DNA of 32,000 nt from an uncultured Rivularia sp. (lineage in GTDB: Bacteria > Cyanobacteriota > Cyanobacteriia > Cyanobacteriales > Nostocaceae), in contig OY762007.1 in assembly GCA_963665115.1 (NCBI GenBank), positions 4,132,341-4,164,340 on the forward strand. Direction: 5' to 3'. Shown one piece after another: positions 11,212 through 30,690 of this stretch. The notes below the pieces were generated by a model, which did not search any database, was not told where the DNA came from, and saw only the letters and a program-made list of their open reading frames with translations. Position 1 is the stretch's first letter. The number at the start of each line of letters is the position of its first letter. A program made the position numbers and the translations under genes.

Positions 11212-11359
11212 ATGCAGTCTTCGTCGATTTAACTTAAAAGGTTTGAGTCTCCTCTCCCGCTAAAGCTTAAAACTTTAGTGGGAGTTTCTTCATTACTTGG
11301 TATTTTAAAATACATTTAATCAATAAAGTTTTATTTTCATATTTCCTCAATATTTTTCT

Positions 11360-11539: not shown

Positions 11540-11565
11540 ATAGTTCGTTTTCCCTGAAACAATGT

Positions 11566-11597
11566 AGAGACGTAGCAATGCTACGTCTCTTTTATTT
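11566..11597 (+). terminator. Rho-independent terminator-like hairpin
   Basis: AGAGACGTAGC (11566..11576) pairs perfectly with GCTACGTCTCT (11580..11590) across a 3-nt loop, followed by TTTATTT. Confidence 0.55.
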
Positions 11598-11731
11598 GCT
11601 GCTATAAGTAAACCGCTATTGTCAACTTTAAAGAAACCCAGTTTCTTTTTATAAAAACACGATTATCTCGTTTGGTCATTTGCAAGAAACCGGGTTTATT
11701 AGTGCTTGTTGATAATGGTGCAAGATTTGTG

Positions 11732-14700: not shown

Positions 14701-17500
14701 TAACTGTAACATTTGCAGCGTTAGTGAAACTAGTATTGTCCGTGATGTTTTCAATATTCTCGAAAGAGAAATAATCAGCGCTGGTATTCCCACTCAACAC
14801 CACTGTATCGCTATCCGAGCTAGAACCAATAAAGTTTTCTACATTGGTGATAATGTCAGTGCTACCCGAACCATCAGTTACCGTAATGCTGCTAGCATCG
14901 GTATTGATATAAATAGTAACTGCACTGTCACTATCGCTATAATCAACGGTATCGCTTCCGGTTCCACCATCAAAAGTATTATCGTTGCTGTCACTAACAA
15001 AAGTATCGTCGTAATCCGAGCCAATTACATTGTCAATATCAACTAAAGTATCGGTACCACCATCTCCATCGCTAGCCGTACCCGCTTCTAAATCAACGCT
15101 AATACCACTACTTGCCGTGCTGTAGCTAACGGTGTCGGTGTCATCTTCAGTATCCCCATCATCGGCAGTACCGCCATAAATTGTATCATCGCCTCCACGA
15201 CCTTCGAGAGTATCGTTCCCTTCACCGCCTTCAAGGATATTATTATTATCGTCGCCCGTAATACTATCATCGTAGCTAGAACCAGTTACGTTCTCAATAC
15301 CAGAGATATAATCTTGGTCTCCATAGCCATCATTAGTAACTGCTTGTTGGGTAGAGGGTTCGTAGGTGGAGCTATCATCATAATCGTCCGCAGACTGATT
15401 AATTAAATCTACAGTCACACCATCTTCTGCATTAATATAGCTAACAGTGTCGCTGCCACCCTCACCAAAAATTAAATCCTCACCAGCTACACCATGAAGA
15501 ATATTGTCGTTATCATCACCAATAAGGGTATCACTGTAGGAACTTCCCGAAAGATTTTCAATGCTGTAAAGTTTATCTAAACCTTGTTCTTTAGTTGAAC
15601 TTTCGGGTAAACCATCATTGGCTGTAGCATACTCCTCACCGTCTGTATCTACAGATACATTAGAAAGGTCTACATAAACACCTTGGGTAGCACCGATGAA
15701 AAATGCAGTGTCGCTACCATCACCACCGTAGAGTTCGTCATCACCTTCACCACCATCAAGCCAGTCATCGCCACCATAACCGAAGATTTCATCTTCATCG
15801 TCCGTATCAGCATTGTCTTTAGTATAGCCATAAAGAACATCGCTATACTCTTCGGTTCCATAAATTTTATCTGTATTCTCCGTGCCATAAACGGTTTGAG
15901 GACCAAAGGCTCCAACAATGAAAAACCCACTTTCATAGTCGGTGATACCTAAATCTGAGAAACTAAAATTATCCAATTCATCCTCAGAATAAGTCTCACC
16001 TCCCTGACGGATCTGATATTCACCACCTACCTTTTCTACATAAATGGCATTATTAGTATACTGAGTTGACAAATAATCTTTAGCATTTGCATCGTCATTA
16101 AAAAAATCTCCACCTAAATGAACCAGGAACTCATCATCATTATTTTTGAATGTTATTCCGGGTAGTCCATCATAGATATCACCAGCCGTATCAAATGCAA
16201 CAGTATCATCGTCGTCATGATAAACAACTAAGAAATCTTCTGTAGGGTCGAAATCGTAAATAACTGTACTTGTTTGAGTGCTTTCTACAGGTTCTGCGGC
16301 GCTCGTTTCTGCTCCATCTACAATGTAATCTAAAATATCTTTGGCAATGGGAACGACTTCTTTAATTAAATTTAGAGTAAAACCAATTTCGCTAGGGGCA
16401 AGTTCTTTGAGTGTAGTGAAAACTGTGTCGCTTAAATCTGTTAAAATGTTATCATAAGCATAATCAAGAAAATCACTTCCAGTTCCAGAACCACTTCCAC
16501 TGCCTGAATTTGGGTTAGCATTAATAATAAAGGTGTCTATCCCTTCCCCACCAAATATATGGTTTTCGTCCTCATCGTAGACGCTTTCATAGATTACGTC
16601 GTTTCCATCACCACCAGAGATAACTGTATCTCCTTGACCTCCGTAAACTACGTCGTCACCTTCGTTAGCAAATAGAAAGTCTGCACCATCAGATTCAAAT
16701 TCGATAGTAATCGAATCTTTATTGCTGCTATCTTCTACAACAATAGTGTAGTCACCGTCTGCAGTAGATGGTGAAGTTGTATTAGAACCAGAAATAACGT
16801 CGTCTCCAGGACCTGCCCAGATACCATCATTATATACACTTCCAATAATTTTATCGTTACCTGAAATTTCGTATTCAGCAAAACCCAGAGCTAAGTCTTC
16901 TAGATACTCAATATAAAATGAAGTAGTGTCTGTTGTCCCATAACCATAGAAAGCATTAAAGGATGTTGTAGGCTCTATCTGACTTACGCGATTGTAATCA
17001 GAGTTAGCAACCACATATTTACCTTCACCAACATCGTCTGCTAAATAGTCTAATATGTTGTCAAATGAAGAATAGTTATCTAACGAACCACCGTAATCTT
17101 CTTCAAGAGCTTCCTCCTCTTCCTCATCAAAATTATGGTCAAGACCAGCACTGAAGTCAAGCTCCATATCCAGAACTTGATCTGAATCAAATATTGTTTG
17201 ATAGTCATACAAATCAAACACGGAAATATAATCGTTTGAATTATACTCAGATTTAACGTAACTGCCACTACCATTACCAGCAGCGAAATAATCAGTAGTT
17301 CTATCCTCAGACTCTAAATATTGACTTAAATAATTCTCAACATAAGGTAGAAATGAATGAGTAAATTGTACTTCTTCTTCATTCTCCCCAAGTATCAATC
17401 CGTTCCAGATATATTCAAAAGCATCGTCGAATGAGACAACCTCAAAAGCTTCAGTATATTCTGAGTCTCCATTGCTATACAATTTCAAGCTTTGTGTCAT
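11732..17500 (-). CDS. Giant secreted-type protein (1922 aa): acidic N-terminal region, RTX-like Ca-binding repeats, right-handed beta-helix (PbH1-type) region, C-terminal DUF4114 domain
   Basis: GGxGxD nonapeptide-like repeats are present (GGQGDTVISGGDGNDVIY; GGDDWLDGGEGDDELYGGDGSDTAFF; GGEGNDTLEGRGGDDTIYGG). So are beta-helix repeats (TISGNTAEYGGGIHN, TISNNTAIYHAGGI, TISGNEATESYGGGIA) ending in DQRGDGYERSSGDATDIGAYE. The C-terminus reads FGFEDLPKGGDFDYNDLIVKVDF. I found no Cys residue and no N-terminal signal peptide. Confidence 0.85.
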   Translation of the reverse strand: MTQSLKLYSNGDSEYTEAFEVVSFDDAFEYIWNGLILGENEEEVQFTHSFLPYVENYLSQYLESEDRTTDYFAAGNGSGSYVKSEYNSNDYISVFDLYDYQTIFDSDQVLDMELDFSAGLDHNFDEEEEEALEEDYGGSLDNYSSFDNILDYLADDVGEGKYVVANSDYNRVSQIEPTTSFNAFYGYGTTDTTSFYIEYLEDLALGFAEYEISGNDKIIGSVYNDGIWAGPGDDVISGSNTTSPSTADGDYTIVVEDSSNKDSITIEFESDGADFLFANEGDDVVYGGQGDTVISGGDGNDVIYESVYDEDENHIFGGEGIDTFIINANPNSGSGSGSGTGSDFLDYAYDNILTDLSDTVFTTLKELAPSEIGFTLNLIKEVVPIAKDILDYIVDGAETSAAEPVESTQTSTVIYDFDPTEDFLVVYHDDDDTVAFDTAGDIYDGLPGITFKNNDDEFLVHLGGDFFNDDANAKDYLSTQYTNNAIYVEKVGGEYQIRQGGETYSEDELDNFSFSDLGITDYESGFFIVGAFGPQTVYGTENTDKIYGTEEYSDVLYGYTKDNADTDDEDEIFGYGGDDWLDGGEGDDELYGGDGSDTAFFIGATQGVYVDLSNVSVDTDGEEYATANDGLPESSTKEQGLDKLYSIENLSGSSYSDTLIGDDNDNILHGVAGEDLIFGEGGSDTVSYINAEDGVTVDLINQSADDYDDSSTYEPSTQQAVTNDGYGDQDYISGIENVTGSSYDDSITGDDNNNILEGGEGNDTLEGRGGDDTIYGGTADDGDTEDDTDTVSYSTASSGISVDLEAGTASDGDGGTDTLVDIDNVIGSDYDDTFVSDSNDNTFDGGTGSDTVDYSDSDSAVTIYINTDASSITVTDGSGSTDIITNVENFIGSSSDSDTVVLSGNTSADYFSFENIENITDNTSFTNAANVTVTLLEDELDGNFSDNDLSLREALILVEDGGNIEFDASLDGETIYLLEQLEIERSVTIDGSNVDLTIDAQENSRVFYISDGDYFNQETVEITGLTITGGNTGSFVYTGYDSAVDAVSGGGIYNLETLTITDSTISGNTAEYGGGIHNDFRANLYLNNSTISNNTAIYHAGGIKILSSDTITISNSTISGNEATESYGGGIALIGGTLNLSNSTVINNIAGDDGGGLSRDSGQLNITSSLISGNTADEDGNEVYSSTFGGTTSSDGNNLFGDDSQTEAQALVNVTLEDSDITAFSDGTNPTALEDILDTTLADNGGSTYTHALLDDSPALDAGNNDDNLETDQRGDGYERSSGDATDIGAYEIQYSSESGTVSNGPVETSTVYWDANFNNEIDEEEPFTVTNADGEYDLTIPLNIFDTNNNGELDYEEGRLVATGGTDTIGDVPLHSDLWAVAGSTMITPLTTMVQRLMQTGMEHDSAEAQIKQVLGIDESVDIHTFNPVEALGQGTDTELAATTYLSHIRVAALLHGVTHFLSGATGKEFAEVDELSVAVTATGLLSLSELDADLDDEAIQKAFQEAFNSNLDDSILSLIDNKDTSFLADSFGLTLQFIDRALLPLAEDEESLLERSASIKQIAYNQIPELLYEVGANTITPEDAQTQLQQKLEQIFTGEINQTNSELAIFNLSQEIGNPKLQVTLSGNDSDAVTELGVFVVDDEQGSINGILPDEAGYTSAALERAQVIFSALANSPNSFDAETNTRILEFANGENIRFYFAQDSNSTEQVIFSNTTNLQVESNGDSGFSLAWNDDLVVDIQPSSQDLAIGTNLQNSSLELIDLTGVTGQVTAEFSVFREAAFDNEVYFYQVDNVAGEVDGFAPNTDNYLQVALDNIVKDAVTGEVVEFSADNQGLETGVAQMEAGSIIAPLIIVNGNLDQLNDDDTSNDPSIYFPYLGANSDGVDHIKLLADNTFGFEDLPKGGDFDYNDLIVKVDFIG

Positions 17501-17573
17501 GATTATTAATTCCTTCGTGTAATTTTGTTAGCTTTTACGTCTCAACAATCCGAAAATAATCAACGCCGATTAT

Positions 17574-17681
17574 TTAACCCCTAAAGTCAAAGTTGAAAAT
17601 CAAGTCGCTACAATCAAGGTCATTACCCTCCGGTAAATGCTCAAAACCAATTGTTGTAAATCAAGATATCTACACCATGAT
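17574..17681 (-). pseudogene. Second DUF4114 C-terminal remnant, just upstream of the giant gene
   Basis: The minus strand encodes GFEHLPEGNDLDCSDLIFNFDFRG* (17574..17648). It is preceded out of frame by HGVDILIYNNW. Compare the giant protein's DGVDHIKLLADNTFGFEDLPKGGDFDYNDLIVKVDFIG*. Confidence 0.6.
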
Positions 17682-17970
17682 TTTTGTTTCCTTATTTGTG
17701 TTCTAAGTAATATATTCATAGATACAAATAATGTAGCTCTAGGTAGATGCAATACTTAACGAGTCTCAGCCTCTAGCTTAAATAAGCAAAAACTGATTAT
17801 TTCAGTTATGAAGTGCAACCCCGTGAAAAGTCGAGTCCAATTTTGATTGTGAAATATTAAGAAATTATTTCAATAAATCAAACCAAAATTAGCTATCTAC
17901 GATTAAGATTACACAGGAAATTCCTTTAAGTGGTATTGCATATTACCTTCAAAGCAGGGTAGAAAAAGTT

Positions 17971-18018
17971 GTCAATTTTTATCAACTTTTATCAACTTTT
18001 ATCAACTTTCAGTTGAAT
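17971..18018. promoter_or_regulatory. Array A: four 10-bp-phased tandem repeats (minus-strand consensus AAAGTTGATA) in the divergent giant-gene/TpsA intergenic region
   Basis: The plus strand reads GTCAATTTTT ATCAACTTTT ATCAACTTTT ATCAACTTTC, then AGTTGAAT, forming the palindrome TCAACT-TTC-AGTTGA. The array lies 248..295 bp upstream of the ATG at 18266. Confidence 0.6.
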
Positions 18019-18265
18019 AGTAATGGTTTTTCCTATCGGTTTTCTGTAGGAGAATAAAGCTAAAAAAGAGCATACAGGATAAATTAATTTGCATTTTTTA
18101 TATAGTTGGTAATTAATATCCAATTAACTCAAATAATCATCACTTTTCGCTTAATTAATTGATAACTTATAGCAATATAGCGGTTTTCGATTATGTGAGG
18201 TACACTTTATAACTGTATTTATCAAAATTTAGCTATATTTACCATAAGCTATTGCTATACCTGTT

Positions 18266-21200
18266 ATGCCCAATTATTTACTAATCAAGCACAAGCAAAT
18301 ATTCCTATGGTATAGGAATCAATTACAGGTACTTTTATCTCTGGAAAAATTAAAATCAACATTTCTTTACCTATCATTACTCTGGAACATTACTACCGCA
18401 ATCTCCACGCTGACAATTTCCACAGTTTTGGCTCAAATCACTCCCGATACAACTTTAGATAATTCTCCCTCTAAAGTAAATTCTCAAGGTTTGAATAATT
18501 TATTGATTGAAGGTGGAGTTAGAAACCAAAGCAATCTTTTTCACAGTTTCCAAGAATTTAACATAAACAACGGACAGCAGGTTTTTTTTGCAAATCCCCA
18601 AGGAATAAACAATATAATCACTCGCGTTACAGGTAATAACCCTTCAAATATCAACGGTGTTTTAGGAGTTAACGGTTTAGCAAATTTATTTTTTATTAAT
18701 CCCAACGGAATTATCTTTGGTAAAGGTTCTCGTCTTGATGTAAATGGTTCTTTTATCGGTGCGACTGCTGAGAGCGTAATCTTCTCAGATGATAGTATTT
18801 TTAGTGCTGTTGAACCGAATAATCCAGCGTTATTAAAAGTAAACGTTCCTTTGGGTTTGCAATACGGTAAAAATACCGCAGCAATTCAACTAAAAGAAGC
18901 TAATTTACAAGTAAAACCTGGTGAAAGTTTAAGTTTAATTGGTGGAAATGTTGATCTAGAAAATTCTACTCTCAAAGCACCGGGGGGAACGATTCAATTA
19001 GGTGGTTTGTTAGCTTCGGGAACTGTGAATTTAAATGATTTAAAATCCTTCAGCTTTCCAGAAAACGTAAAACTTGCTGATGTTTCTTTAACTAATAAAT
19101 CCAATATTGAAGTTATAGCTAGTGGTGGTGGAGATATTTTTGTCAATGCGAATAATTTTTCTTTAAATAACAGTAGTTTTCGAGCCGGAATTAAAGATAG
19201 ATTGGGAGATAGAGAAGCAGTTGCGGGTGATATTTCTATTAACGCTACAGGAGATATTAATATTGACCAAGACAGTAATATTAGGAATATTTTAGAACTT
19301 AATTCTTTGGGTAGTGGAGGAAAAATTGATATCAAAACAAATAACTTTTTCCTTAAAGATTCAAATATATTAACCAATACTGGTAGTATTGGTGATGCGG
19401 GAAATATCACGATTGAAGCAGCGAATAATTTAGAAGTTATTTCTAGTCCCCAAAACATAGCTTTAGGAATAAGAGGAAGAAAAGGTATATTTTCCAGAGT
19501 TGAAAGAAATGGCACTGGGAATGGTGGTAATATTACTGTCAAAGCTCCGGATATTACTCTTTCAGGTATTGGCGGTATTGAAAGCGGAAGCAGTGGTTTG
19601 GGAAATGCTGGGAAAATATTGATAGAAAGCGATCGCCTTAAAATCATTGAGAATGCAGTTGTATCAGCAAATACAGCGAATTTAGGGAATGCTGGAGAAA
19701 TTTTAATTAAGTCATCTGAGTTTATTGAAGTCAGTAATAAAATTAGCGATTCTCGATTTGCAAATTTAACCGGACCACCGGGAGGAATTGTTGTAGATGT
19801 ACGTCCACGAGGTACTGGAAATGGTGGCAAAATTAGTTTAGAAACCACAAGATTAACTATAAAAGATGGAGCATTGGTTGTAGCGGGTAGTAGAGGAGGA
19901 GGAAATGCTGGTGATATAAATATTCGTGCTACAGAATTAATTGAAGTTACTGGTAGAAGTCAAAACGATAGAAATATGTATACCAGTCAAATAGGTACAG
20001 CATTACAGGAAAATTCCACGGGTAAACAAGGGGGTAATCTTTTTTTAGAAACCAAGAATTTGATTGTTAGTAATGGAGCAGAAATTGATGTTAGTACAAA
20101 TAATTCTGGACAAGCTGGAGATTTAACTGTTATAGCATCTGAATCGGTTTTTTTAGGGGGATTATATGAAGGTATTCCCAGCCGTTTGCAATCTCAAGTC
20201 GATAAAAATGGTAGCGGAACGGGAGGAGATATTTTAGTTCAAACTGGAATAATAAATTTAAAAAATGGCGCTCAAATTTCTGCTGCTAATTTAGGAAAGG
20301 GAAATAGTGGTAACGTTAATATCTTTGCTGATGAAATAAATATAGCCGGTTCTACATTAGCTCTTGAAAAATTGCCTTTTAGAACTTCCGAATTTGTCAC
20401 AGATGACACGGGGAATTTATTTCCGAGCGGAATTTTTAGCAGTTCATTACAAGTAGGAGATGCAGGTAATTTAGAAATAGAAACGGGTAAATTAACTCTT
20501 GAAGATAAGGCTCAAATTTCAGTCAGCAGTCAACAACTTGGTGCAGCAGGAAATTTGGAAATTCAAGCAAATCAAATTTATCTCGATAATGCAATAATCA
20601 GCGCTGACACTGTAGCGGGAGATAAAGGAAGTATTTATTTGAATGGTGCAGATATTCGATTGCGTCAAGGTAGTCGGTTAACAACAAATGCGACTCAAAC
20701 TGCTACCGGAGGTAACATTGATATTGATAGCTTAACTTTAGTTGGTTTAGAAAATAGCGATATTACAGCTAATGCAGAAGATAATTTTGGTGGTAGAGTA
20801 ATTATCAATGCTGAAGCACTTTTTGGGATTGCGTTTAGAGATTTTATCACTCCACAAAGCGATATTACTGCAACTTCTGCGTTGGGAGCAGAATTTAATG
20901 GTGTCGTCGAAATTAACACCCCAGATATTGACCCCTACTTCTGCGTTGGAAGAGTTACCAGAAACATTTACCAACCCATCGCAAATTACAGCGGGATGTC
21001 CCGCTGATGGAGGAAATAAGTTTGCTGAAACAGGAAGAGGTGGTTTACCAAAAAGTCCTCAAGAAGTTTTACGTTCTCAGGTAGTTGTTGAAGATTGGAG
21101 AGTTTCGCTTGGGGAAGTTGTTGATAAAGCAGAAATTCAACAAGAAGAAAATAAATTTACCCCAATTGTTGAAGCTCAAGGTTGGATTGTAAACGAAGAC

Positions 21201-21275
21201 GGAGTTATCGAATTTGTGGCTAATTTACCTAAAGATAATGTCCCTGTTGGAAACAATTCAGTAAATTGTGGTTAA
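18266..21275 (+). CDS. Filamentous-haemagglutinin-like (TpsA-type) exoprotein, with an apparent 1-nt insertion at a C4 run (20932..20935)
   Basis: The N-terminal TPS/haemagglutination-activity domain is present (NLFHSFQEFNI, ITRVTGNNPSNINGVLG, LFFINPNGIIFG). Long beta-helical GNAG-type repeats follow. Frame 1 ends ..NTPDIDP, and the next frame continues TSALEELPETFTNPSQITAGCPADGGNKFAETGRGGLPKSPQE... to 21275. The total of 3010 nt minus 1 equals 1003 codons. The start codon is uncertain. Confidence 0.8.
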
Positions 21276-21439
21276 AGCTGTGAAAAATTAACGGTTAACA
21301 ATTAACGAGAAAATTGTAGGTTGGGTTGAGCCACGTTAGCGAAGCGTGTCCGATAGGACATAAACTAACACAAAATCTATTGTTACAAAATTCAAAAAAT
21401 TGGGAAACATAAGAAAGTCAATTTCAGTAATATCCTGTA

Positions 21440-23578
21440 ATGAAAGCCGTTTTACAACACAGCGAAGAAGATTGTGGTGCTGCTTGTTTGGCTACTGTTG
21501 CGAAACACTACGGTAGAACTTTCACTCTGAGCAGAATGCGAGAATTTGTTGGTACGGGTAGTCAAGGTACTACTCTTTTAGGGTTGAAGCGGGGAGCAGA
21601 AAATTTAGGATTTAATGCTCGTACACTCAGAGCTACTCCTAAGCTGATCGAATCGTTAGATCAAATAACTTTGCCTGCAATTATTCACTGGAAGGGCTAT
21701 CACTGGGTAGTATTATTCCAGCAAAAGGGAAACAAATATGTAATTGCAGATCCTGCTGTGGGTATACGCAACCTTAGCAAGCGGGAATTAACGCAAGGTT
21801 GGGTAAATGGCGTAATGTTGCTCTTAAACCCCGATGATAACCGTTTTTACCAACAAGAATCAGATAAGATAGACGGTTTTGGTCGTTTTTTGAAACGGGT
21901 TTTACCTTATCGGTATATTTTAGCAGAAGCGATCGCCATTAATATTGTGGTGGGTTTGCTGGCTTTGGCAACTCCTTTTATGATGCAAATACTGACGGAT
22001 GATGTATTGGTTAGGGGTGATATCCAGCTTTTAACTACTGTCAGTATTGCGGTGATGGGGATGAATGTTTTTCGCTCTGCAATTGGTATTGTGCAATCCC
22101 ATCTTGTAGGACAATATGCTCAACGGTTAGAATTAGGTTTGATTTTAGATTATGGCTATAAGCTGCTACGTTTACCTTTATCTTATTTTGAAGCTCGTCG
22201 TAGTGGAGAAGTTGTTAGCCGTATTAGTGATGTTAGGAAAATCAATCAACTGGTTTCTCAAGTTGTTTTAAGTTTACCCAGTCAATTTTTTATCGCTGTC
22301 ATCTCTTTAGGGATAATGTTATTTTACAGTTGGCAGCTTGCTTTGGCTTCTATACTCGCTTTTATTATAGTTATAGCTGTTAACTTTTTATTTTTACCCG
22401 CATTGCGCCAAAAAACCCGCGCTACGATTATTTTAGGTACGGAAAATCAAGGTTTTTTGGTAGAAACATTTCGCGGTATTCAAATTCTCAAAACAACTCA
22501 GGGAACTCCCCAAGCTTGGGAGGAATATCAAGCTAATTACAGTCGTCTTGCTAATCTCAACTGGAGTACTATGAAGTTGGGATTATATAGCAACACATTT
22601 ACAACTTTGCTCAATAGTCTGACAAATGTTGGTTTACTTTGGCTGGGCAGTTATTTTGTAATTAATCGCACCCTCAGCATCGGACAATTACTTGCTTTTA
22701 ACGGTATGAGCGGTAATTTCTTAGGCTTTTTAGGTGTCGCGATGGGATTAATTGATGAATTTATTACTGCTCAAGTAGTAATTAAACGGTTGACTGAAGT
22801 TTTAGATGCGAAAGAGGAAGATGAAAACGGGAATGAAAAACCTTGGGTAGAAATTTCAGAAAAAGCCAATATCGTCTGCGACAAACTTAATTTTCACCAT
22901 CAAGGTAGAGTTAACCTGCTCAAGGATTTTTCTTTAACTATTCCCGGTGGAAAGGTGACAGCTTTGATTGGACAATCTGGCTGTGGTAAAAGTACTTTAG
23001 TTAAAATTATTGGCGGATTGTACGAATTGCAATCGGGAAATATCCGCTACGATATTTACAATCAAGACGATATTTCCTTAGAATGTCGCCGACAGCAGAT
23101 AGTATTAGTTCCCCAAGAGCCTCATTTTTGGAGTCGCTCAATTGTTGATAATTTCCGCTTTGCCTATCCTAGCGTTGATTTTGAACAAATTGTTAAAGCT
23201 TGTCAGATAGCTTATGCAGATGAATTTATCAGCGAATTACCAGATAAATACCATACTATTTTAGGGGAATTTGGTACAAACCTTTCTGGGGGACAAAGAC
23301 AAAGATTAGCGATCGCCAGAGCAATTGTCACAAACCCACCGATTTTAATTTTAGATGAATCTACTGGTGCTTTAGATCCAGTTTTGGAAAGTAAAGTATT
23401 AGAAAGCTTATTAGAATATCGTCAAGGAAAAACAACGATTATGATTAGTCATCGCCCTAGAGTCATTGGACGTGCGAACTTTATTGTACTGTTGGAAAAA
23501 GGAGAATTGCAGCTTACAGGTAATCCTCAAGAATTACTACAAAAACCAGGGAAACATTTAGATTTTCTAACACCTTGA
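21440..23578 (+). CDS. Peptide-processing ABC exporter with an N-terminal C39 peptidase domain (712 aa)
   Basis: The C39 triad candidates are HSEEDCGAACLATVAKHYG (Cys), GYHWVVLF (His) and IADPAVG (Asp). The protein has six predicted TM segments, Walker A GQSGCGKST, signature LSGGQRQRLAIARA and Walker B ILILDE. Confidence 0.9.
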   Translation: MKAVLQHSEEDCGAACLATVAKHYGRTFTLSRMREFVGTGSQGTTLLGLKRGAENLGFNARTLRATPKLIESLDQITLPAIIHWKGYHWVVLFQQKGNKYVIADPAVGIRNLSKRELTQGWVNGVMLLLNPDDNRFYQQESDKIDGFGRFLKRVLPYRYILAEAIAINIVVGLLALATPFMMQILTDDVLVRGDIQLLTTVSIAVMGMNVFRSAIGIVQSHLVGQYAQRLELGLILDYGYKLLRLPLSYFEARRSGEVVSRISDVRKINQLVSQVVLSLPSQFFIAVISLGIMLFYSWQLALASILAFIIVIAVNFLFLPALRQKTRATIILGTENQGFLVETFRGIQILKTTQGTPQAWEEYQANYSRLANLNWSTMKLGLYSNTFTTLLNSLTNVGLLWLGSYFVINRTLSIGQLLAFNGMSGNFLGFLGVAMGLIDEFITAQVVIKRLTEVLDAKEEDENGNEKPWVEISEKANIVCDKLNFHHQGRVNLLKDFSLTIPGGKVTALIGQSGCGKSTLVKIIGGLYELQSGNIRYDIYNQDDISLECRRQQIVLVPQEPHFWSRSIVDNFRFAYPSVDFEQIVKACQIAYADEFISELPDKYHTILGEFGTNLSGGQRQRLAIARAIVTNPPILILDESTGALDPVLESKVLESLLEYRQGKTTIMISHRPRVIGRANFIVLLEKGELQLTGNPQELLQKPGKHLDFLTP

Positions 23579-23629
23579 GAATATAGCGCTTTTCACCGTT
23601 GATGGAATACACATTAACCTCACCCCCAT

Positions 23630-23654
23630 CCCCTCTCCTTGTCAAGGAGAGGGG
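23630..23654. terminator. GC-rich hairpin downstream of the ABC exporter gene
   Basis: CCCCTCTCCTT (23630..23640) pairs perfectly with AAGGAGAGGGG (23644..23654) across a 3-nt loop. Confidence 0.5.
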
Positions 23655-23775
23655 TGGAAGGAAAGGGGTAAGGTTGCGACTTATGGACTCAATTGAAAAC
23701 TGCTATATATGAGTATTCCTAAACAAAGGTGAGATGACTATTAATAGCATTCCTAAATCATTTGTGAGATTTTAG

Positions 23776-23804
23776 AAACCCGGTTTTTTGGAAAAACCGG
23801 GTTT
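23776..23804. terminator. Bidirectional terminator-like hairpin between the convergent ABC and protease genes
   Basis: AAACCCGGTTTTT (23776..23788) pairs perfectly with AAAAACCGGGTTT (23792..23804). The 13-bp stem has T and A runs built into both arms. Confidence 0.6.
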
Positions 23805-23854
23805 GTGGCACCTACCTTTTTTACGACTCATCTAGGATTGCTATATGAGTATTC

Positions 23855-26067
23855 CTAAACAAAGGTAATATCGCTATCCAGATTAAAACCAGATCCATTT
23901 AGGGAAGCAACGGTATTTCCTTCATAGGATAAAGTACCGCCAACTGTGATTGTCTGTTTGAATGGGGCCCCCATCCGATATTTATAGTCTGAGAACTATA
24001 ACTAAAGTCATCCAAACTAGCATCAGAAATTCCAAGAGCTTGAACATCTATACCGATTTTGTCTCCCTGGCTAGAATTAAAGTCAGTAATTATGTCATAA
24101 CTACCAAAATCATCTAAGACGAACAAGTCACTACCATTATTACCACTGAGAGTATCTCTTCCGGCACCACCATACAAAGTATCGTTACCAGCTTTACCAA
24201 GTAGATTATCCTGTCCGGAACCACCATAGACAATATCGTGGTTAGCACCAGCATAGATAGTATCATTACCGTCACCACCTACCAAGATGTCGTTGCCATT
24301 ATAGCCTTTGATGAAATCTGCACCATCGCTACCAAAAATATAATCGATACTATTTGAACCATTTAGAGTATCGTTACTGTTCGTACCTGCTTGGAAGTTA
24401 TCATTAAAACCGGCTAAAACCCCCGTGGTACCAGCAGCGGTAATTGCCATGCCTAAGTTATAAGCATCTACTCTCTGGAAATCTAACCCTGTATTGGTAA
24501 CGTTATCATTTTCGTCATCACCGTCATTAATAGTCACACCAGTAACTTGCATTAAATCGCGGAATTCTTCTACAGATAATCTGCGTCCTAATTCTTGTAC
24601 TGCTAAGTCTTGGGCTAAAGTAGCGATACCAGCAATGAAAGGTGAAGCTTGAGAGGTACCTGCCGATGCCATATATCCACCAGTAGCATTAGCACCAGTA
24701 ATTAATGCTCCAGGAGCAAAAATATCGAGTAAAGTTTCGTGTCTTTGGGAAAAACTAGCAATCCTATCTACATCGCTGCTGTAATCAGTTGCACCACTGC
24801 CATAACCAATTGCACCTTCATTCTCTTCATATACTGCACCTACGGTAATAACATCCGAATGTGCGCCAAAGACATTGACTCCCTGTTCGCTGCTATTGCC
24901 ATAAAAATCGTTACCAGCAGCAGCAGCGACTATGACATCATTATTTGCTAAAGTCTGAAATACATTGCTAAAACTACTAACTACTTCAGTATTGTAATTA
25001 CCAGAACCAAGGGATAAGTTAACGCTGGCAATATTATAGGTATCGATGTTACTTGTCACCCATTGTAAGGCTTCATAAACATCAGTCATAGAAGCGCTAA
25101 GGCCACTATCATCAAACACTTTTAAGTGAATGATATCGGCACCAGAGGCAATGTTCCCAGCGATGCTAGAAACGTGAGAACCATGTCCGTTATAGTCTTG
25201 AGCATTATTGTCATTGTTGCCATAAAAATCATAAGAATAAGCAATGCGATCGGCAAAAACGGAATGGTCTAAGTCAATTCCGGTATCAATGATAACCATT
25301 GAAAAACCAGAACCATCAACGTTAGCGCCAAAAGTGTTATTAAAATCATCCAATCCAACAGCATCATAGCCACTGTCAAATTGAGGTGTGAAAACATCTT
25401 CAGAACTTACATCAACTCTGATTACTTCTTGGGTTGTAGCAACAAATTCCTCATTTACAGATTCTGAGTTGGAAGTATTGCTATTCTCACTTACACTATT
25501 GTCAGATTCGGTATTTTCAGCTTCAGTTTGATTTTGAACCTGGCTATTGTTGGTTTGACCGTTCTCAGATTCTTCTAAGTCTTGATTATCTTGGAAAAGA
25601 TTTTCAGAATTATTCGAGTTTGATAAATCAAAATCTTTTTCTTTTTCTGGTTTATTTGGATTGGATTTATTATTAACAGTTGTTTTCTTGACGATTTTAG
25701 GTAAATCTGCAAAAAAGTCTTCTCGTAAATTGTAATTATTTAGAAGAGATAAAACTTCTTTGAAGCTATTATAAATATTGGCGCTATTTACCTCATTTTC
25801 TACATCTACAGTTGTGCTGTTTGTATTTAGTATGTTATTAACTTCTGCTACATACTGGCTATTATCAGATACAACTTGTTGCAGATTATTTATTTGCTCA
25901 TCAGTCAAAGATAAATCACTTACACCATAGTTGGTAAGCATCCACCATTCGACAAACCCCGCTTTCCATTCACCATCTGTTAACTGTTCCCAATACTCAT
26001 CTGAAAATACTTTTTCCAATTTTTCTTTATTCTTAACTGCTGAATTTTTATGGTTATTTACAGACAT
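23855..26067 (-). CDS. Subtilisin-like (S8) serine protease with C-terminal RTX repeats, and an apparent 1-nt deletion at a G/C run (23964..23972)
   Basis: The catalytic triad motifs are MVIIDTGIDLDH (Asp), NGHGSHVSSIAG (His) and GTSQASPFIAG (Ser). RTX repeats are present (GGDGNDTIYAGANHDIVYGGSGQDNLLGKAGNDTLYGGAGRDTL). The track ORF ends oddly at 23899 (..GWGPHSNRQSQLAVLYPMKEIPLLP*). The neighbouring frame continues as APFKQTITVGGTLSYEGNTVASLNGSGFNLDSDITFV* to 23855. The total of 2213 nt plus 1 equals 738 codons. There is no Cys and no signal peptide. Confidence 0.85.
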
Positions 26068-26227
26068 GATAATTCTCTCAAATTTATAAAATTGTTAAAA
26101 TTTTGTTTGTCTTATTTGAATAGAGAGTTGAAGTTTTTCTCTATCTGTTAAACATCATATTTATTATTTTTCTAATCGTAAATAGAAAATTGATGATATT
26201 TTGTTGTAGAAAATAAATGGTTTATGT

Positions 26228-26251
26228 AAAGTTGATAATAGTTGATAAAAG
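26228..26251. promoter_or_regulatory. Array B: two 10-bp-phased AAAGTTGATA-type repeats upstream of the protease gene
   Basis: The sequence is AAAGTTGATA ATAGTTGATA AAAG, 161..184 bp upstream of the ATG at 26067 on the minus strand. Confidence 0.55.
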
Positions 26252-26490
26252 TAAATGCTTTTTCTAATTACTATTGACATTTAGCGAATATATTAAGTAA
26301 TATTTTTTTATCTTAAGTATATTAATCGAGATGAATTCACTTTATTCAAAATGAAAAATATATTGAAATACTGTTTGATTGCTGAAACTAATACTTTACC
26401 CGATACCCGTTTATGGTTGCGGCTGATAGCCTGCGGGCTTTTGCCATCCGAAGGGATGCTTTCTGCTCAATTATCTGGACTTGATGTTGA

Positions 26491-26524
26491 ACAAAAAAAT
26501 AGAGATGTCAAACTAAACATCTCC
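26491..26524 (-). terminator. Rho-independent terminator of the peptide/hlyD operon
   Basis: The minus strand reads GGAGATGT-ttagtttg-ACATCTCT followed by ATTTTTTT. It lies about 80 bp downstream of the hlyD-like stop at 26601. Confidence 0.6.
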
Positions 26525-26600
26525 AAAAGAAAAGAAAATAGAACACAATAAGTTTTACCCACCAAAAAATAATGACTTATATATAATTTTATAAAAATAT

Positions 26601-28187
26601 TTATAAATTAACTAATAACCTCGCTTTTCTCAGCATAAATGTTAAAACTGTTTCTTCCTTAGAAATAATATCTGCACTACCTTCCATACCTAATTGAATA
26701 TTACATTGTTTCCCAGCTACATTTAAGATTAAATTATCGGGTTTAATTTGTACTTGATAACTTGCTCCTTGAGGAACTATTCCCATTGGGGAAGCGGAGT
26801 TAGAAGCAATTGAATTAGATTGAGGATTGATTGCATCGGGGGAAATACTGCTAACCCTTCCTTTAAGAGTTCCATAATCGGGATAGGGACAAGCTGATAC
26901 TCGCATATGTACTATTTGCCCAAGCTCAACTTTACTGATTTCCCCAGAGGGTATGCTGGCTTTAATTTCTAAAGGTGTGTCACTAGGAGCAATTTGAGCA
27001 ATCATTTCTCCAGCACGAATCACCTGGGAGGTATTTCGCAAATTTAATTGGGCAATTATTCCAGAAGCGGAAGCTCGAATGTTAATATCTTCTAGTTCGG
27101 TTTCTATTTGTTGTAAATCTTTTTTATAAGTTTGTAATTGATTCTGTAACTGTGCTTGATTTTGCATCAATTGTTCTTTTTGCTGCTTGAGTCTGGATGA
27201 AGTCGCTTCTCCCCTAGCTCTTTCTTGTGCAATTCTTTCTCGTGCGATCGCAATTTCTGCTGGAGTAGGATTAAGAGTAGTTTTTACCTTCTTTAATCTT
27301 GCATTCGCTACTTCTATCGCTCTTTGTTGCTTAGCAACGGTTTGTTTATGAGCTTCAACTATGGCTTTTTGTGATTCTAGAGCTTGTTGTTGTTGCTCGA
27401 CTGCGAGAATAGCTTCATCATATCTGTCTCGGGAAAGCGCACCCGATTCAACAATTGATTTATAGCGATCGCGCTTTTTCTTTGCTGTTTTTAAGGAAGC
27501 TGCGGTAGAGCGTAAATTAGCTTGAGCCGATTTTAATTCTGATTTACTTCTTCGTAAATCTTCTTGCATTAATCTAACATTAGCCGTCGCTTCTTCAACA
27601 TCGGAGATAGCGCTAATTTGACGGTTTTGATGCTCCCTTTGAGTACGTTGCAATTCCGCTAATCCAGAAGCTACTGCGCGGTTGGTTTGTTCTGCTTCTG
27701 CTCTAATTTGATTATCTAATGCTACAATTTGTGCTGTTAATTGAGTTAATTGAATTGTACTTTGTTGAATATTTCCTGCTAGGTGACTTTTCTTAGTTTG
27801 TAAACGAGAATCATCAAGTACGGCAATGATATCTCCTTGTTTAACTTGTTGATTTCCCTTAACTAAAATACTATTTACCGTTCCTTCCGTCGCAGCTTGC
27901 ACCAAACGCAATTCCCCAGCCGGACGAATTGTCGCGGGAACTTTAACTGTAGTCTTATATTTAAGGATACTTGTAAGAGTAACACCCGCACCAAAAGCAG
28001 CTAAAAGTACTAAACCGCCAATCGTAGTCCATTTACCAATAGGAGGTAAAAAATCTTCTGGATTTGCAGTATTTATAGATTCTAAATTAATTCCTTTGGG
28101 TGATGGTATTGCTTTTTCGATTGATTTTTCTACCCCAGAGAAGGAATTTATATTATTTGATATTGAAGGAATATCGGCATTAGTCAT
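26601..28187 (-). CDS. HlyD-family membrane-fusion (periplasmic adaptor) protein, 528 aa
   Basis: It has an N-terminal TM segment (WTTIGGLVLLAAFGAGVTLTSIL) and a lipoyl-like motif (VKQGDIIAVLDD). A long coiled-coil region rich in Q, A, R and E follows, then a C-terminal beta-barrel region. Confidence 0.88.
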   Translation of the reverse strand: MTNADIPSISNNINSFSGVEKSIEKAIPSPKGINLESINTANPEDFLPPIGKWTTIGGLVLLAAFGAGVTLTSILKYKTTVKVPATIRPAGELRLVQAATEGTVNSILVKGNQQVKQGDIIAVLDDSRLQTKKSHLAGNIQQSTIQLTQLTAQIVALDNQIRAEAEQTNRAVASGLAELQRTQREHQNRQISAISDVEEATANVRLMQEDLRRSKSELKSAQANLRSTAASLKTAKKKRDRYKSIVESGALSRDRYDEAILAVEQQQQALESQKAIVEAHKQTVAKQQRAIEVANARLKKVKTTLNPTPAEIAIARERIAQERARGEATSSRLKQQKEQLMQNQAQLQNQLQTYKKDLQQIETELEDINIRASASGIIAQLNLRNTSQVIRAGEMIAQIAPSDTPLEIKASIPSGEISKVELGQIVHMRVSACPYPDYGTLKGRVSSISPDAINPQSNSIASNSASPMGIVPQGASYQVQIKPDNLILNVAGKQCNIQLGMEGSADIISKEETVLTFMLRKARLLVNL

Positions 28188-28223
28188 GGTTAAAGGAAAA
28201 CAGGTAAATTTAAGAAAAGAAAA

Positions 28224-28253
28224 GGTAGAGATATTGTATTTAACATCTCTACC
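28224..28253 (-). terminator. Hairpin (possible attenuator) between the peptide genes and hlyD
   Basis: GGTAGAGAT (28224..28232) pairs perfectly with ATCTCTACC (28245..28253). On the minus strand the stem is followed by TTTTCTTTTCTT. Confidence 0.5.
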
Positions 28254-28317
28254 AAAAAAAGTGTATAAGAGAATATTTTTTAAGGCAATTAGATGAAAAT
28301 TCTCATAATTTTTACTA

Positions 28318-28463
28318 TTAAATACTTATCCTCCAAGTAGACGGTACAAAGCTATAAGCAAGAAAAAATCCACCAGTTAAGTTTTCAGAAGATTCATCTG
28401 ACAACACTTGAAATATTTTTTTTTAACTTCAGTAGCTATATTTTTCTTCTTTTTGATAGACAT
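28318..28463 (-). pseudogene. Third double-glycine-leader peptide gene, out of frame at a 9-nt homopolymer (28416..28424)
   Basis: The ATG frame reads MSIKKKKNIATEVKKKYFKCCQMNLLKT*. The other frame reads IFQVLSDESSENLTGG|FFLAYSFVPSTWRISI*. One extra A (A10) would fuse them into a 48-aa precursor. The 5' leader AAAACTTGGAG is shared with its two paralogues. Confidence 0.6.
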
Positions 28464-28598
28464 GACGATTTTCTCCAAGTTTTGAAAAAGGTTTTATTTA
28501 ATTTTGGTTTATGAGTGAAGCTGAAAGATTTAGTAATCTAGGTAGTGTATAGTTTGCTTTGATTTTCTTACTTCAAAAGCTTATCTAGGTTCTTACCT

Positions 28599-28853
28599 TT
28601 ACGATTTGATTAATATTATGTCTACTTGAGCTTCTTGTTCATCTGATGAAGTTATTGTTGTTTCTCCGATCACTGTTCCTTCTCCGTCATAATTATCGGC
28701 AAACTTAAATAATTTTTTAAGTTCATTTAACCACGAACTACTACTAAACAGTTTATTTAAAATTGAAGCAGTAATAAATCCACCAGTTAACTGTTCGGAA
28801 GCATCATCTGACAATTCTTCAAACAAATGTTGTTGATTTTTGTTACTAAACAT
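28599..28853 (-). CDS. Double-glycine-leader peptide precursor 2 (84 aa)
   Basis: The leader is MFSNKNQQHLFEELSDDASEQLTGG. The 59-aa Cys-free core is FITASILNKLFSSSSWLNELKKLFKFADNYDGEGTVIGETTITSSDEQEAQVDIILIKS. Confidence 0.75.
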   Translation of the reverse strand: MFSNKNQQHLFEELSDDASEQLTGGFITASILNKLFSSSSWLNELKKLFKFADNYDGEGTVIGETTITSSDEQEAQVDIILIKS

Positions 28854-28975
28854 TATTTTAAATCCAAGTTTTTACCAAAGATTTGAGTTAGTTGTACCTT
28901 GAGTGAAGTTGAATTATTTCGTAAATTGGGTACTACTCTACTTTAATTTCATAAAAATAGAGTTTTTTTAGATTT

Positions 28976-29005
28976 GTTAGAGATATTATAAATAACATCT
29001 CCAAC
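28976..29005 (-). terminator. Hairpin after peptide gene 1, related in sequence to the one at 28224..28253
   Basis: GTTAGAGAT (28976..28984) pairs with ATCTCCAAC (28997..29005) with one wobble. It has the same AGAGAT..ATCTC core and a 12-nt loop. Confidence 0.4.
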
Positions 29006-29048
29006 AAGATTGCACCTCAATCACTCAAAGTATTTAACGGCTTTATAA

Positions 29049-29288
29049 TTAACCAAACATTGAGTTATATTGCGCGAGCAACATTGGTTTTACAATATTT
29101 CTCAAAAATTTTGGAAAAGACTTTAATGTATTGCCAAACATTTCATTAAATGATGGGGGTTCGTCTGTAATATATGTTGGTTGAATATCTTTGGATTCTG
29201 CATACAGTTGTTCTCCACCAGTCAAATTTTCAGAAGCTTCATCTGACAATACTTCAAATAATTGCTCTTGATTTTTGTTAATAGACAT
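29049..29288 (-). CDS. Double-glycine-leader peptide precursor 1 (79 aa)
   Basis: The leader is MSINKNQEQLFEVLSDEASENLTGG. The 54-aa Cys-free core is EQLYAESKDIQPTYITDEPPSFNEMFGNTLKSFPKFLRNIVKPMLLAQYNSMFG. Confidence 0.75.
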   Translation of the reverse strand: MSINKNQEQLFEVLSDEASENLTGGEQLYAESKDIQPTYITDEPPSFNEMFGNTLKSFPKFLRNIVKPMLLAQYNSMFG

Positions 29289-29410
29289 TGTTTGAACTCC
29301 AAGTTTTAAAAAAGGTTTTAAGTTGTTTTAAGCCTTGATTGAGGTTTTGCTTTGCTGTTCCTCCATCTGTAAACAATACTAAACGTTTTTTCTCTCAGTG
29401 TAAATAAACA

Positions 29411-29472
29411 AAAGTTGATATCTTTTTTGAAGAATAAACCAACATTTTCATCAAAGTTGACAAAAGTTGATA
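29411..29472. promoter_or_regulatory. Array C: AAAGTTGATA at 29411..29420 plus the tandem pair AAAGTTGACA AAAGTTGATA at 29453..29472, upstream of the peptide operon
   Basis: The array lies 123..184 bp upstream of the ATG at 29288 on the minus strand. It has the same orientation relative to its gene as arrays A and B. Confidence 0.55.
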
Positions 29473-29915
29473 TATCCGTTTTTTGCCCTTGCAAAAAACT
29501 TGATTGTTGGTGTAATAGTTATTCTTTGCTTTTAATTTTTTTTGATTAAATATGATTGCTTAGCTTAAGATATTTAATATATGTAATTATTCCCACATTC
29601 TTGATAAGAAAGAAGTAAATTAATTAGTGATTATTTTAAATAAAATATGAAGCTGTTGATTTTTTTCTAGTAATTTTCACTAACATTTGTTTCTATATCC
29701 GCAAATACCACGACTCGAAGAGAAATAATGCAACTACAACTGTCACAGCATTCGCAGCGGAATTTTACGAAATTATATGATTGCGAGCGGTAGCCTTAAC
29801 GGCAGCTTTGCGGAACGAAAGTGTAGCGTGTCCCGTATGGACTCAGCAATTTACCCTTATACTGGGAATGTTTACTGTTACGCTACTTCCAGCTTAATAT
29901 TGCTCCGATAAATGA

Positions 29916-30690
29916 CTACGCAACAATCCATAGATGTTCGTGGGTATCCGGCCATATTTGAATTTGCGGACGAGCTTCTAGCGCCGTACTAATTAATTGA
30001 CTGGCAATATCGGCGTGAATAGAAACTCCACTGACTCTATCGCGATAATGAGTATAAAAATAGTCATCTAAACTTGCCGCTGTAGGGTCCAATTAAAACA
30101 ATGCGATCGCGAATAAATTCAGGTGACATTTTCCCTGTTAATACCTGATTCATTGAGATTGTAGGGAAACCAGAGCGGAGGTTGCGAAAGTTAGCTAATA
30201 CTTGATAACCACCTATATCATTTCGCAGATAGCCGCCATCCGAAGCATCTAATTCAATTAGAAAACCTTTACCGAGTTTGAGCGATAAAACTTCTTCTCC
30301 AACAAATTCTGGATAAATGCCTTTGCTTTCAAGATAGTTTAAAGCTAACTGCGTTCCCAAACCCAAGATAATGTCGCCGTTTTTATCTTCAATAGATAAT
30401 AGATTACGTCTGACTCTACCATCTTGGTCTACAACTATATCAGAAGCACTTACCTGTCCTAATTCTTTTAATTTTAGTGGTGGATTAACGAAATTAGAAG
30501 CACTACCCGTCATCTTCTAAATTCCGAATAAACTTAGTGTGGATGCAAAAACCTGTACTAGCTGCTTAAATGCTGGCTCTACAGGTAAATCGCGATAAAT
30601 ATCAAGTCCAATAACTGATGGTTGGTGTTGTTTTACGATTGATAATAATCTCATCTTCCCAAAAAATATATCCTTGTATGGTCTACACCT
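29916..30690 (-). pseudogene. CHASE2 sensor-domain gene remnant (in-frame stop, frameshift, both ends truncated)
   Basis: The minus strand encodes ..SVIGLDIYRDLPVEPAFKQLVQVFASTLSLFGI*KMTGSASNFVNPPLKLKELGQVSASDIVVDQDGRVRRNLLS...IRDRIVLIGP. After a frame change near 30070 it continues TAASLDDYFYTHYRDRVSGVSIHADIASQLISTALEARPQIQIW...*. There is no TM region or output domain, and it abuts the right junction. Confidence 0.6.

Follow-up and report, generated by a model that had tools for sequence, protein, structure and literature searches.

The stretch of DNA considered here, hereafter the window, is a 32,000-nucleotide segment from an uncultured Rivularia sp. (contig OY762007.1, positions 4,132,341 to 4,164,340) and corresponds to a cyanobacterial nif region, in which nifB, fdxN, nifS and nifU are followed by a fragmented nifH and by the 5′ end of nifD. 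Within a 21.9-kb element that interrupts nifH lies a peptide-export locus composed of three small precursor genes with a double-glycine (GG) leader (pep1, pep2 and pep3), a gene for an HlyD-family periplasmic adaptor (hlyD), a gene for a peptidase-containing ABC transporter (PCAT), and genes for two larger proteins, an S8 subtilase and a β-helical protein with a two-partner-secretion (TPS) domain. The locus is a real and fairly ordinary cyanobacterial peptide-export system, and an initial annotation made from the sequence alone had typed its architecture correctly.

Precursor genes and export machinery

The three precursor genes lie in tandem on the minus strand and share a leader of 25–32 aa that ends in LTGG, with Gly at positions −1 and −2, beside a PCAT gene. 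pep1 (29049..29288) encodes 79 aa, i.e., a 25-aa leader, MSINKNQEQLFEVLSDEASENLTGG, and a 54-aa core starting with EQLY, and pep2 (28599..28853) encodes 84 aa, with a 25-aa leader, MFSNKNQQHLFEELSDDASEQLTGG, and a 59-aa core starting with FITA. pep3 (28318..28463, stop codon 28318–28320) is frameshifted: its ATG (28461–28463) is out of frame with the leader, which ends in IFQVLSDESSENLTGG, and the shift falls in a run of nine A (28416–28424). Correction of a single base gives a 32-aa leader, which is the length of the leaders of the S8 gene and of the related loci L001–L005 and L007, followed by a 16-aa core, FFLAYSFVPSTWRISI. The initial annotation had placed the three LTGG genes correctly and had rightly described the cores as 54, 59 and 16 aa long, devoid of Cys and without significant mutual similarity. 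It had also recognized the leader and core of pep3, but overlooked that the ATG and the leader are in different frames. The 5′ block that it reported as common to the three genes is indeed present, as AAAACTTGGA(G), 10–12 nt ahead of each ATG.

A repeat search of the window independently picked out the leader DNA as a family of repeats (D1–D3). Between pep1 and pep2, identity is 84% in the leader and 71% in the 60 nt upstream, whereas their cores reach 44%, against a shuffled baseline of 47.6 ± 3.3%. Because the core identity is at the shuffled level, the homology between the two genes ends exactly at the GG site. Scores against a leader hidden Markov model (HMM) are 63.9 bits for pep1, 59.7 bits for pep2 and 40.6 bits for pep3. 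The canonical GG leader is hydrophobic at −4, −7, −12 and −15 and carries a Leu(−12)-x3-Glu(−8)-Leu(−7) signature (PMC8277102); the leaders of the window show, by reading, Leu(−4), Leu(−12) and Phe(−15) in addition to the Gly residues at −1 and −2. The AlphaFold model of pep1 (mean predicted local distance difference test, pLDDT, 72.8) places leader residues 3–21 in a helix and residues 47–78, at the C-terminus, in a helical hairpin, with a pLDDT of 75–88 over the C-terminal 33 residues, so that pep1 is predicted, with moderate confidence, to combine a disordered acidic N-terminal part with a C-terminal helical hairpin. The model of pep2 was unreliable (pLDDT 45) and was not used. Computation of hydrophobic moment and charge assigns to both pep1 and pep2 a cationic amphipathic segment and an acidic segment.

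The exporter gene (21440..23578, plus strand) encodes a 712-aa PCAT in which a C39 domain (PF03412, 122 bits, residues 2–133), a six-transmembrane domain (PF00664, residues 164–425) and a nucleotide-binding domain (PF00005, residues 494–642) form a single chain, i.e., a C39 peptidase joined to a type IV ABC exporter core. The protein aligns over its full length with PCAT1 (4ry2, E = 2.6e-100) and ComA (8hf4). Its Gln6, Cys12, His88 and Asp104 correspond to Q11, C17, H96 and D112 of ComA, the last three also to C21, H99 and D115 of PCAT1. Given the roles of these residues in C39 peptidases (PMC8277102), the catalytic Cys, His and Asp, already pointed out in the initial annotation, and the oxyanion Gln are all in place, and the C39 peptidase is, as judged from these residues, catalytically intact. 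The exporter is of the short type: the C39 domain starts at residue 2 and no match to a cyclic-nucleotide-binding domain was found.

The periplasmic adaptor gene (26601..28187, minus strand) encodes 528 aa matching TIGR01843 (151.5 bits), PF13437 and PF13533. Together with the precursors and the PF03412-bearing exporter that aligns with PCAT1 throughout, it bears out the proposed GG-precursor, HlyD and C39-ABC architecture. The initial annotation was right that hlyD follows the peptide genes, but it overlooked an attenuator- or terminator-like hairpin between pep3 and hlyD, GGTAGAGATGTT…ATATCTCTACC followed by a T-tract (28224..28253, minus strand). A similar hairpin stands after pep1 (28978–29007, z = −5.0), and a terminator-like hairpin with a T-tract follows hlyD (26500..26525, minus strand). 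The position of the latter implies that the S8 gene is a separate transcription unit. The hairpins thus suggest that transcription is attenuated after the precursor genes, ahead of hlyD, and that S8 has a transcript of its own.

The S8 gene (23899..26067, minus strand), situated between hlyD and the ABC gene, encodes a 722-aa subtilase (PF00082, 91 bits) with C-terminal RTX repeats (PF00353, 72.6 bits). The motifs DTG, HGSH and GTSQASP can be recognized in it by eye, and reading reveals no signal peptide; the adjacent ABC protein is the one with the intact C39 domain. Its residues 1–32 (25972–26067), MSVNNHKNSAVKNKEKLEKVFSDEYWEQLTDG, are a fourth homologous copy of the leader: the N-terminus belongs to leader DNA repeat family D1, scores 44.7 bits against the leader HMM and 62.6 bits in an exhaustive profile search, and the region upstream of the gene is paralogous to that upstream of pep1. 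This copy ends in LTDG, with Gly replaced by Asp at −2, and so lacks the double glycine. None of the 119 best S8 homologues, the protein itself excepted, has a leader-like N-terminus. The fusion of leader and promoter to a large, presumably secreted protease is one unusual feature of the locus. It also qualifies the earlier statement that no modification enzyme accompanies the peptides, since this leader-bearing and putatively co-regulated protease lies within the span then described.

On the other side of the exporter gene, the TPS-domain gene (18266..21275, plus strand) encodes a filamentous-haemagglutinin-type β-helical protein (PF05860, 184 bits) with a Sec-type signal peptide. A frameshift at a run of four C near 20935 divides the gene into an open reading frame (ORF) at 18266–21007 and its continuation at 20808–21275; once corrected, the gene ends 164 nt ahead of the ABC gene, which fits the recurrent association of PCAT and TPS genes described below. 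Tandem copies of a 10-bp direct repeat, TATCAACTTT, stand upstream of pep1, of the S8 gene and of the TPS gene that precedes the ABC gene. The copies are found as TATCAACTTTTGTCAAC about 170 nt upstream of pep1 (29456..29472, minus strand), as TATCAAC repeats about 165 nt upstream of the S8 gene (26231..26257, minus strand), and as three to four tandem TATCAACTTT units about 260 nt upstream of the TPS gene (17970..18006, plus strand). Seven matches occur in the window against 0.37 expected, a number reached by none of 100 shuffles, and within the window the repeat is confined to the regions upstream of genes of the system.

Comparable frameshifts, all at homopolymer runs, occur in the window in nifS (about 2403, G5), in a tyrosine recombinase gene (about 5680, GGGCCC), in the TPS gene (about 20935, C4) and in a remnant of a CHASE2 gene (about 30095, CCC), beside that of pep3 (A9). 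On account of these, assembly error is the likeliest explanation of the pep3 frameshift, which is probably an artefact of this kind, and the five frameshifts look like a systematic error of the assembly; were they real, restoration of nitrogenase would be compromised. Programmed frameshifting at the A9 run is less likely than error or mutation, since the slippery run is absent from the leaders of relatives and since similar homopolymer frameshifts affect unrelated genes.

Related loci in other cyanobacteria

The family of the exporter is large and well conserved in cyanobacteria: it counts 3444 proteins at E ≤ 1e-50, and 536 loci were confirmed in species-representative genomes. Paralogues of the long type give much weaker matches to the exporter (E = 8e-95) than orthologues do (E = 0). 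The closest clade, at 81% identity over 100% of the length, is found in seven Nostoc/Scytonema genomes that share the same layout, with precursor and hlyD genes convergent with the ABC gene. These genomes encode a single 91-aa precursor, the 32-aa leader of which is the same (MSINKNESL.IENQEELFEVLSDECCEQLTGG) and the core of which, KSWWKK…GGMTALGLYTAGELALE…, is conserved across all seven. The earlier idea that a conserved leader with hypervariable cores reflects diversifying cargo holds inside the locus of the window but not in this sister clade. In one Nostoc metagenome-assembled genome (MAG) (locus L006, 13951–14262), the 91-aa precursor has an in-frame stop inside the leader (…IENQ*ELFEVLSDECC…), which is either another disrupted precursor or a MAG error.

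A word-based homologue search with pep1 returned pep1 alone, and the relatives were reached through the neighbourhood of the exporter and the leader profile. The leader HMM search that had been proposed as a check did find GG-leader relatives in other genomes: an exhaustive search with the leader profile (1.84 billion protein representatives) returned pep1, pep2, the S8 protein and one 91-aa family, that of Nostoc/Scytonema, together with four repetitive false positives. This exact leader is very rare, with that single family as the only other peptide carrier. The promoter repeat is absent from related loci at ≤2 mismatches. A sequence loosely similar to it, GTTGATAACTTT, is present in the close relatives L001–L007, some 390 nt upstream, and was not counted. 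At about the same distance upstream of the 91-aa precursor genes, a block, AGAAAGTTTGTTGATAACTTTAAAG, is conserved in L001–L005 and L007; it contains GTTGATA, the reverse complement of the TATCAAC unit, and may be a related operator, although the match is too weak to count.

In a wider clade (72–75% identity), other GG leaders (…EQLFTELTPEEGAVIEGG, …ELDNEVAATCSGG) are carried by proteins of 95–145 aa, some of them with a β/γ-crystallin domain (PF00030), encoded directly upstream of ABC and then HlyD genes; in most of the related loci examined, GG-leader proteins are indeed encoded directly upstream of the ABC gene. Of the 85 loci analysed, 80 have an HlyD orthologue next to the ABC gene, and 44 have a TPS-domain homologue no more than 10 kb from the PCAT gene, often directly after hlyD. 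All such TPS proteins have Sec-type, AxA-type signal peptides, and no TpsB was found in the four loci with gene tables. The recurrent operon (L008–L086; e.g., L016 8741–17678, L035, L083 and L085) runs from one or more GG-leader proteins through C39-ABC and HlyD to one or more TPS proteins with Sec signals. RTX proteins also recur near related PCAT loci. In several loci, a divergent set encoding an extracytoplasmic-function (ECF)-like σ factor (Sigma70_r4), DUF1822, CHAT–CHASE2 and DUF928 proteins stands beside the PCAT operon (L085 2656–8549, L086 329–7143), and CHAT–CHASE2 is present in 25 of 87 loci. Modules of caspase–CHASE2, ECF σ and DUF1822 have been interpreted as sensory systems (Kaur et al. 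2021, PMC8195603). The searchable literature yielded no description of an operon running from a GG protein through C39-ABC and HlyD to TPS, and the literature searched held no paper tying either the CHAT–CHASE2/ECF-σ module or TPS proteins to PCAT operons. The presence of these recurrent partners, the TPS-domain gene and the CHASE2 remnant, was overlooked when the locus was first read as a stand-alone unit.

The nifH-interrupting element and its other genes

The element that holds the locus extends over 21.9 kb (8798..30689, plus strand) and is bordered by a 7-bp direct repeat, CTACACC, at 8798–8804 and 30683–30689. Some 70 nt inside its left end begins an XisF-family serine recombinase (8873–10255), which scores 492.6 bits with NF041201 (cut-off 375), and in-silico joining of the two repeats yields an uninterrupted NifH C-terminus. 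A nif gene interrupted by DNA that brings its own recombinase and ends in short direct repeats restoring the ORF is the hallmark of an XisF-type excision element. These features support, from sequence, the location of the peptide-export locus within an element of this type, as the initial annotation had it. The locus would be passenger DNA on an XisF-type element and, for this reason, should leave the chromosome in heterocysts when the 21.9-kb element is excised. Rivularia sp. PCC 7116 has a nifH element at nifH position 781, with an ACACC repeat, a serine recombinase 74 nt from its start and a size of 61.95 kb (Hilton et al. 2016, PMC4874684, Table B). The element of the window has the same ACACC core at the same nifH position, restores the frame upon joining of the repeats, and carries about 70 nt from its start a recombinase of the same XisF family, known also from the fdxN element, but is 21.9 kb long instead of 61.95 kb. 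The main text of that study makes no mention of bacteriocin or ABC-transporter genes as element cargo.

nifH itself is in four pieces (4458–~4830, ~6660–6730, ~8465–8804 and 30690–30801), the second of which is a 24-codon mini-exon that includes the cluster-ligand Cys region. From this division, it follows that two small tyrosine-recombinase elements also interrupt nifH, besides the 21.9-kb element. nifD, which starts at 30953, has a further interruption at about 31190. A search of Rfam gave no match anywhere in the window.

The element is otherwise rich in surface and secreted proteins. It encodes a 1922-aa RTX/DUF4114 protein (11732–17500, minus strand) with central RTX repeats and a C-terminal DUF4114 domain. 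Its N-terminus (…EAFEVVSFDDAFEYIWNG) looks leader-like by eye but is outside the DNA repeat family and has no leader-HMM score at E ≤ 10, so a leader was ruled out. Short DUF4114-coding remnants at 17574–17650 and 11035–11208, with 81% DNA identity to the 3′ end of the gene, flank it on both sides. A CHASE2 remnant (29916..30654, minus strand), truncated at its 5′ and 3′ ends and frameshifted, matches PF05226 in three frames, covers model positions 59–249 and shows homology (E = 1e-15) to the CHAT–CHASE2 genes found beside related PCAT loci; it abuts the right border of the element. Between the convergent stop codons of the ABC and S8 genes, a 36-nt direct repeat (23706–23741 and 23842–23877) is present in two copies, 89% identical and 136 nt apart.

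Possible functions and comparison with known systems

Altogether, the locus is probably a working-type PCAT secretion system of the bacteriocin-like kind assigned to group III in cyanobacteria, for which the following mechanism can be proposed. The C39 domain would dock the amphipathic 25–32 aa leader (…LFEVLSDExxExLTGG) and cut after Gly-Gly, and the transporter, together with HlyD and a TolC-type outer-membrane channel encoded at an unlinked site, would export the cores of pep1 (54 aa) and pep2 (59 aa), as well as that of pep3 (16 aa), provided that the frameshift at the A9 run is bypassed or artefactual. Once mature, these products would be unmodified, membrane-active, bacteriocin-like pro-peptides, a reading favoured by the cationic amphipathic helical segment beside an acidic one and by the predicted hairpin of pep1, and the secreted S8/RTX protease would be the best candidate for a second, extracellular trimming step. 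The three units (pep1–3 with hlyD; S8; TPS with ABC) would be co-regulated through the TATCAACTTT repeats, presumably bound by a winged-helix-type regulator encoded elsewhere, and the hairpins after the peptide genes would hold the transporter mRNA below the precursor mRNA. New cargo would have arisen by duplication of a promoter–5′ untranslated region (5′UTR)–leader module onto unrelated downstream sequence.

Several observations weigh against this proposal. The leader has Ser at the canonically hydrophobic position −7 in the peptides (Trp in the S8 copy), and its Glu residues stand at −9 and −6, not at −8. Neither pep1 nor pep2 has a Pfam or NCBIfam match at E ≤ 0.01, and the precursors remain below the cut-off of every curated bacteriocin precursor family tested (NCBIfam CTB NF038167, NHLP, Nif11 and TIGR01847; Pfam), the best score, 13 bits against a cut-off of 32, being that of the pep2 leader region with the ‘CTB family bacteriocin’ model NF038167. 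Homologous cores were found nowhere, either by the word-based search or by the exhaustive leader-profile search. As the initial annotation had stated, the window contains no TolC-like outer-membrane factor gene and no visible immunity gene: a plausible small ORF is found neither within the series of peptide genes nor beyond it, and the intergenic stretches of 130–195 nt hold only hairpins. The absence of an immunity gene tells specifically against a bacteriocin. A scan of the window for the σ70 consensus performed no better than chance (24 found, 25.1 expected). The LTDG end of the S8 leader may escape cutting by C39, and this leader may be a mere relic of promoter capture. Finally, with pep3, the TPS gene and the CHASE2 remnant all frameshifted, part of the locus may be decaying.

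Among the alternatives, the serious rival keeps the same export machinery and assigns to the peptides a role in the matrix, adhesion or biofilms, like that of EbfG1–4 exported by PteB, in concert with the TPS β-helix protein, the S8 protease and the neighbouring 1922-aa RTX/DUF4114 protein; such a role is possible rather than probable. Small GG-motif proteins drive biofilm formation in S. elongatus (PMC4997328), the locus has no immunity gene, the promoter repeat is common to the peptides and to a TPS gene of adhesin type, and many of the other genes of the element encode surface and secreted proteins. The GG cargos of the sister family, folded proteins of 95–145 aa that are often β/γ-crystallins and stand in operons with TPS proteins, also speak for it, but the cores of pep1–3 show no similarity to these crystallin-type cargos, pep1 and pep2 look, as far as models and computation go, like short amphipathic helices rather than folded domains, and the 91-aa cargo of the sister clade (KSWWKK…GGMTALGLYTAGELALE) resembles, in a resemblance only, a cationic, Gly-rich, membrane-active peptide. 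A second alternative, that of a passenger locus in decay on a selfish element, no longer giving a functional system and with the S8 leader as a by-product of promoter capture, is unlikely. The frameshifts in pep3, the TPS gene and the CHASE2 remnant would be expected of such decay, as would the Gly-to-Asp change at −2 of the S8 leader, the truncation of the CHASE2 gene at both ends, the DUF4114 remnant and the orphan cores. However, frameshifts of the same homopolymer kind affect nifS and the element recombinase, which points to assembly error instead of decay, the ORFs of ABC (712 aa), HlyD (528 aa), S8 (722 aa), pep1 and pep2 are intact, and the ABC protein retains its catalytic residues and 81% identity to full-length orthologues over 100% of the length.

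Two further explanations appear very improbable. In the first, the peptides, especially the 16-aa pep3, would be secreted signals, either a pheromone inducing the TATCAAC-repeat promoters or a developmental signal as proposed for HetC. A short induction peptide with a GG leader is common in class II bacteriocin regulons, as are direct repeats in their promoters, and direct repeats stand ahead of all three units of the locus. HetC is a PCAT needed for heterocyst differentiation (PMC4133259, PMC10986499), and the locus lies within an element presumably excised in heterocysts. Against a signal, the window, and with it the element, holds no histidine kinase or response regulator, the exporter is without the cyclic-nucleotide-binding domain that is essential in HetC (PMC10986499), the peptides lack a HetP-like KIxDLxYLE motif (PMC3140520) and, by reading, one of the RGSGR type, and pep3 is out of frame as sequenced. 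It is equally doubtful that ABC and HlyD mainly provide type I secretion for the RTX proteins of the element, with the small peptides as secondary clients. The S8 and 1922-aa proteins both have RTX repeats and no apparent Sec signal, and the recurrence of RTX proteins near related PCAT loci fits this idea; but RTX exporters generally carry a degenerate C39-like domain, although some, e.g., CyaB, keep an active one (PMC8277102), whereas the exporter of the window is to all appearances catalytically intact. Moreover, it is GG-leader proteins that are encoded directly upstream of the ABC gene in most related loci examined, and the 1922-aa protein has its RTX repeats in the centre, a DUF4114 C-terminus and an N-terminus that the leader HMM does not match.

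If the reading as a group III-like export system is true, the already large catalogue of cyanobacterial GG-peptide clusters gains a rare leader subfamily and two or three orphan peptides, secreted without modification, and the locus offers one of few functional guesses for the cargo of nif-interrupting elements. The points that may prove more unusual are the presence of the leader and promoter cassette on the S8/RTX protease and the linkage of PCAT and HlyD with TPS proteins. With the promoter–5′UTR–leader module apparently duplicated onto unrelated genes, including a protease, one locus illustrates how leader-dependent exporters gain cargo, and the linkage with TPS proteins and CHAT–CHASE2/ECF-σ modules may hint that filamentous cyanobacteria have a larger system for secretion or for the cell surface. 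The basic classification is altered by neither of these. A bolder combined reading, which is unlikely to hold, would take the promoter–leader module as a portable export-and-regulation cassette and the S8/RTX protease as a PCAT client that matures the co-exported pro-peptides outside the cell. It would further regard the operon from GG protein to PCAT, HlyD and Sec-dependent TPS protein as an undescribed cyanobacterial secretion or surface-display system, in which a type-I-like exporter and a two-partner-secretion-type β-helix protein work together, one copy having been captured by the nifH element and being removed from the heterocyst chromosome. The occurrence of TPS in 44 of 85 loci, the lack of TpsB in the four annotated loci and the frequent flanking by ECF-σ, DUF1822 and CHAT–CHASE2 genes lend support to the idea of such a multi-component system.

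In class II lanthipeptides and cytolysin, leader removal proceeds in two steps, with a cut by the C39 domain of LanT followed by an extracellular subtilisin (LicP, CylA). The locus of the window likewise brings together a C39 exporter and a secreted-type S8 protease, but it has no lanthionine enzymes and no Cys in the cores, and its protease bears a leader copy and RTX repeats. The likeness to PCAT1–CtA of Clostridium thermocellum and ComA–ComC of Streptococcus extends to the full-length alignment of the exporter, the retained Gln, Cys, His and Asp, and a cargo with an N-terminal helical GG leader, the cut at GG being predicted here. In contrast to these systems, the setting is Gram-negative and needs HlyD and an outer-membrane channel, sequence identity is low, and the leader is without the Glu(−8)–Leu(−7) signature.

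Cyanobacterial PCATs offer closer settings. PteB–EbfG1-4 of Synechococcus elongatus PCC 7942 similarly combines, by its description, a PCAT with tandem small GG-motif proteins, which in that case serve biofilm formation (PMC4997328). HetC of Anabaena/Nostoc PCC 7120, to which the initial annotation had likened the exporter, is also an ABC exporter with a C39 peptidase, active in HetC and, from its residues, presumably so in the exporter of the window. HetC is, however, of the long type (about 1000 aa) and requires its N-terminal cyclic-nucleotide-binding domain for function (PMC10986499, PMC3140520), whereas the exporter of the window has 712 aa and no such (CAP_ED) domain, which weakens the analogy. 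The best match is found in the group III bacteriocin clusters of cyanobacteria, which comprise a short-type C39-ABC, HlyD and, on average, 3.9 precursors of 29–129 aa, with little conservation of the cores and common frameshifts and rearrangements (Wang, Fewer & Sivonen 2011, PMC3140520). The locus has the same short C39-ABC, HlyD and several tandem GG precursors with unrelated cores, with no CAP_ED domain, second ABC gene or LanM. It differs from these clusters in its very rare leader subfamily, its leader-bearing S8/RTX protease, the position of the ABC gene on the opposite strand, behind a TPS gene, and its placement in an apparent nifH excision element.

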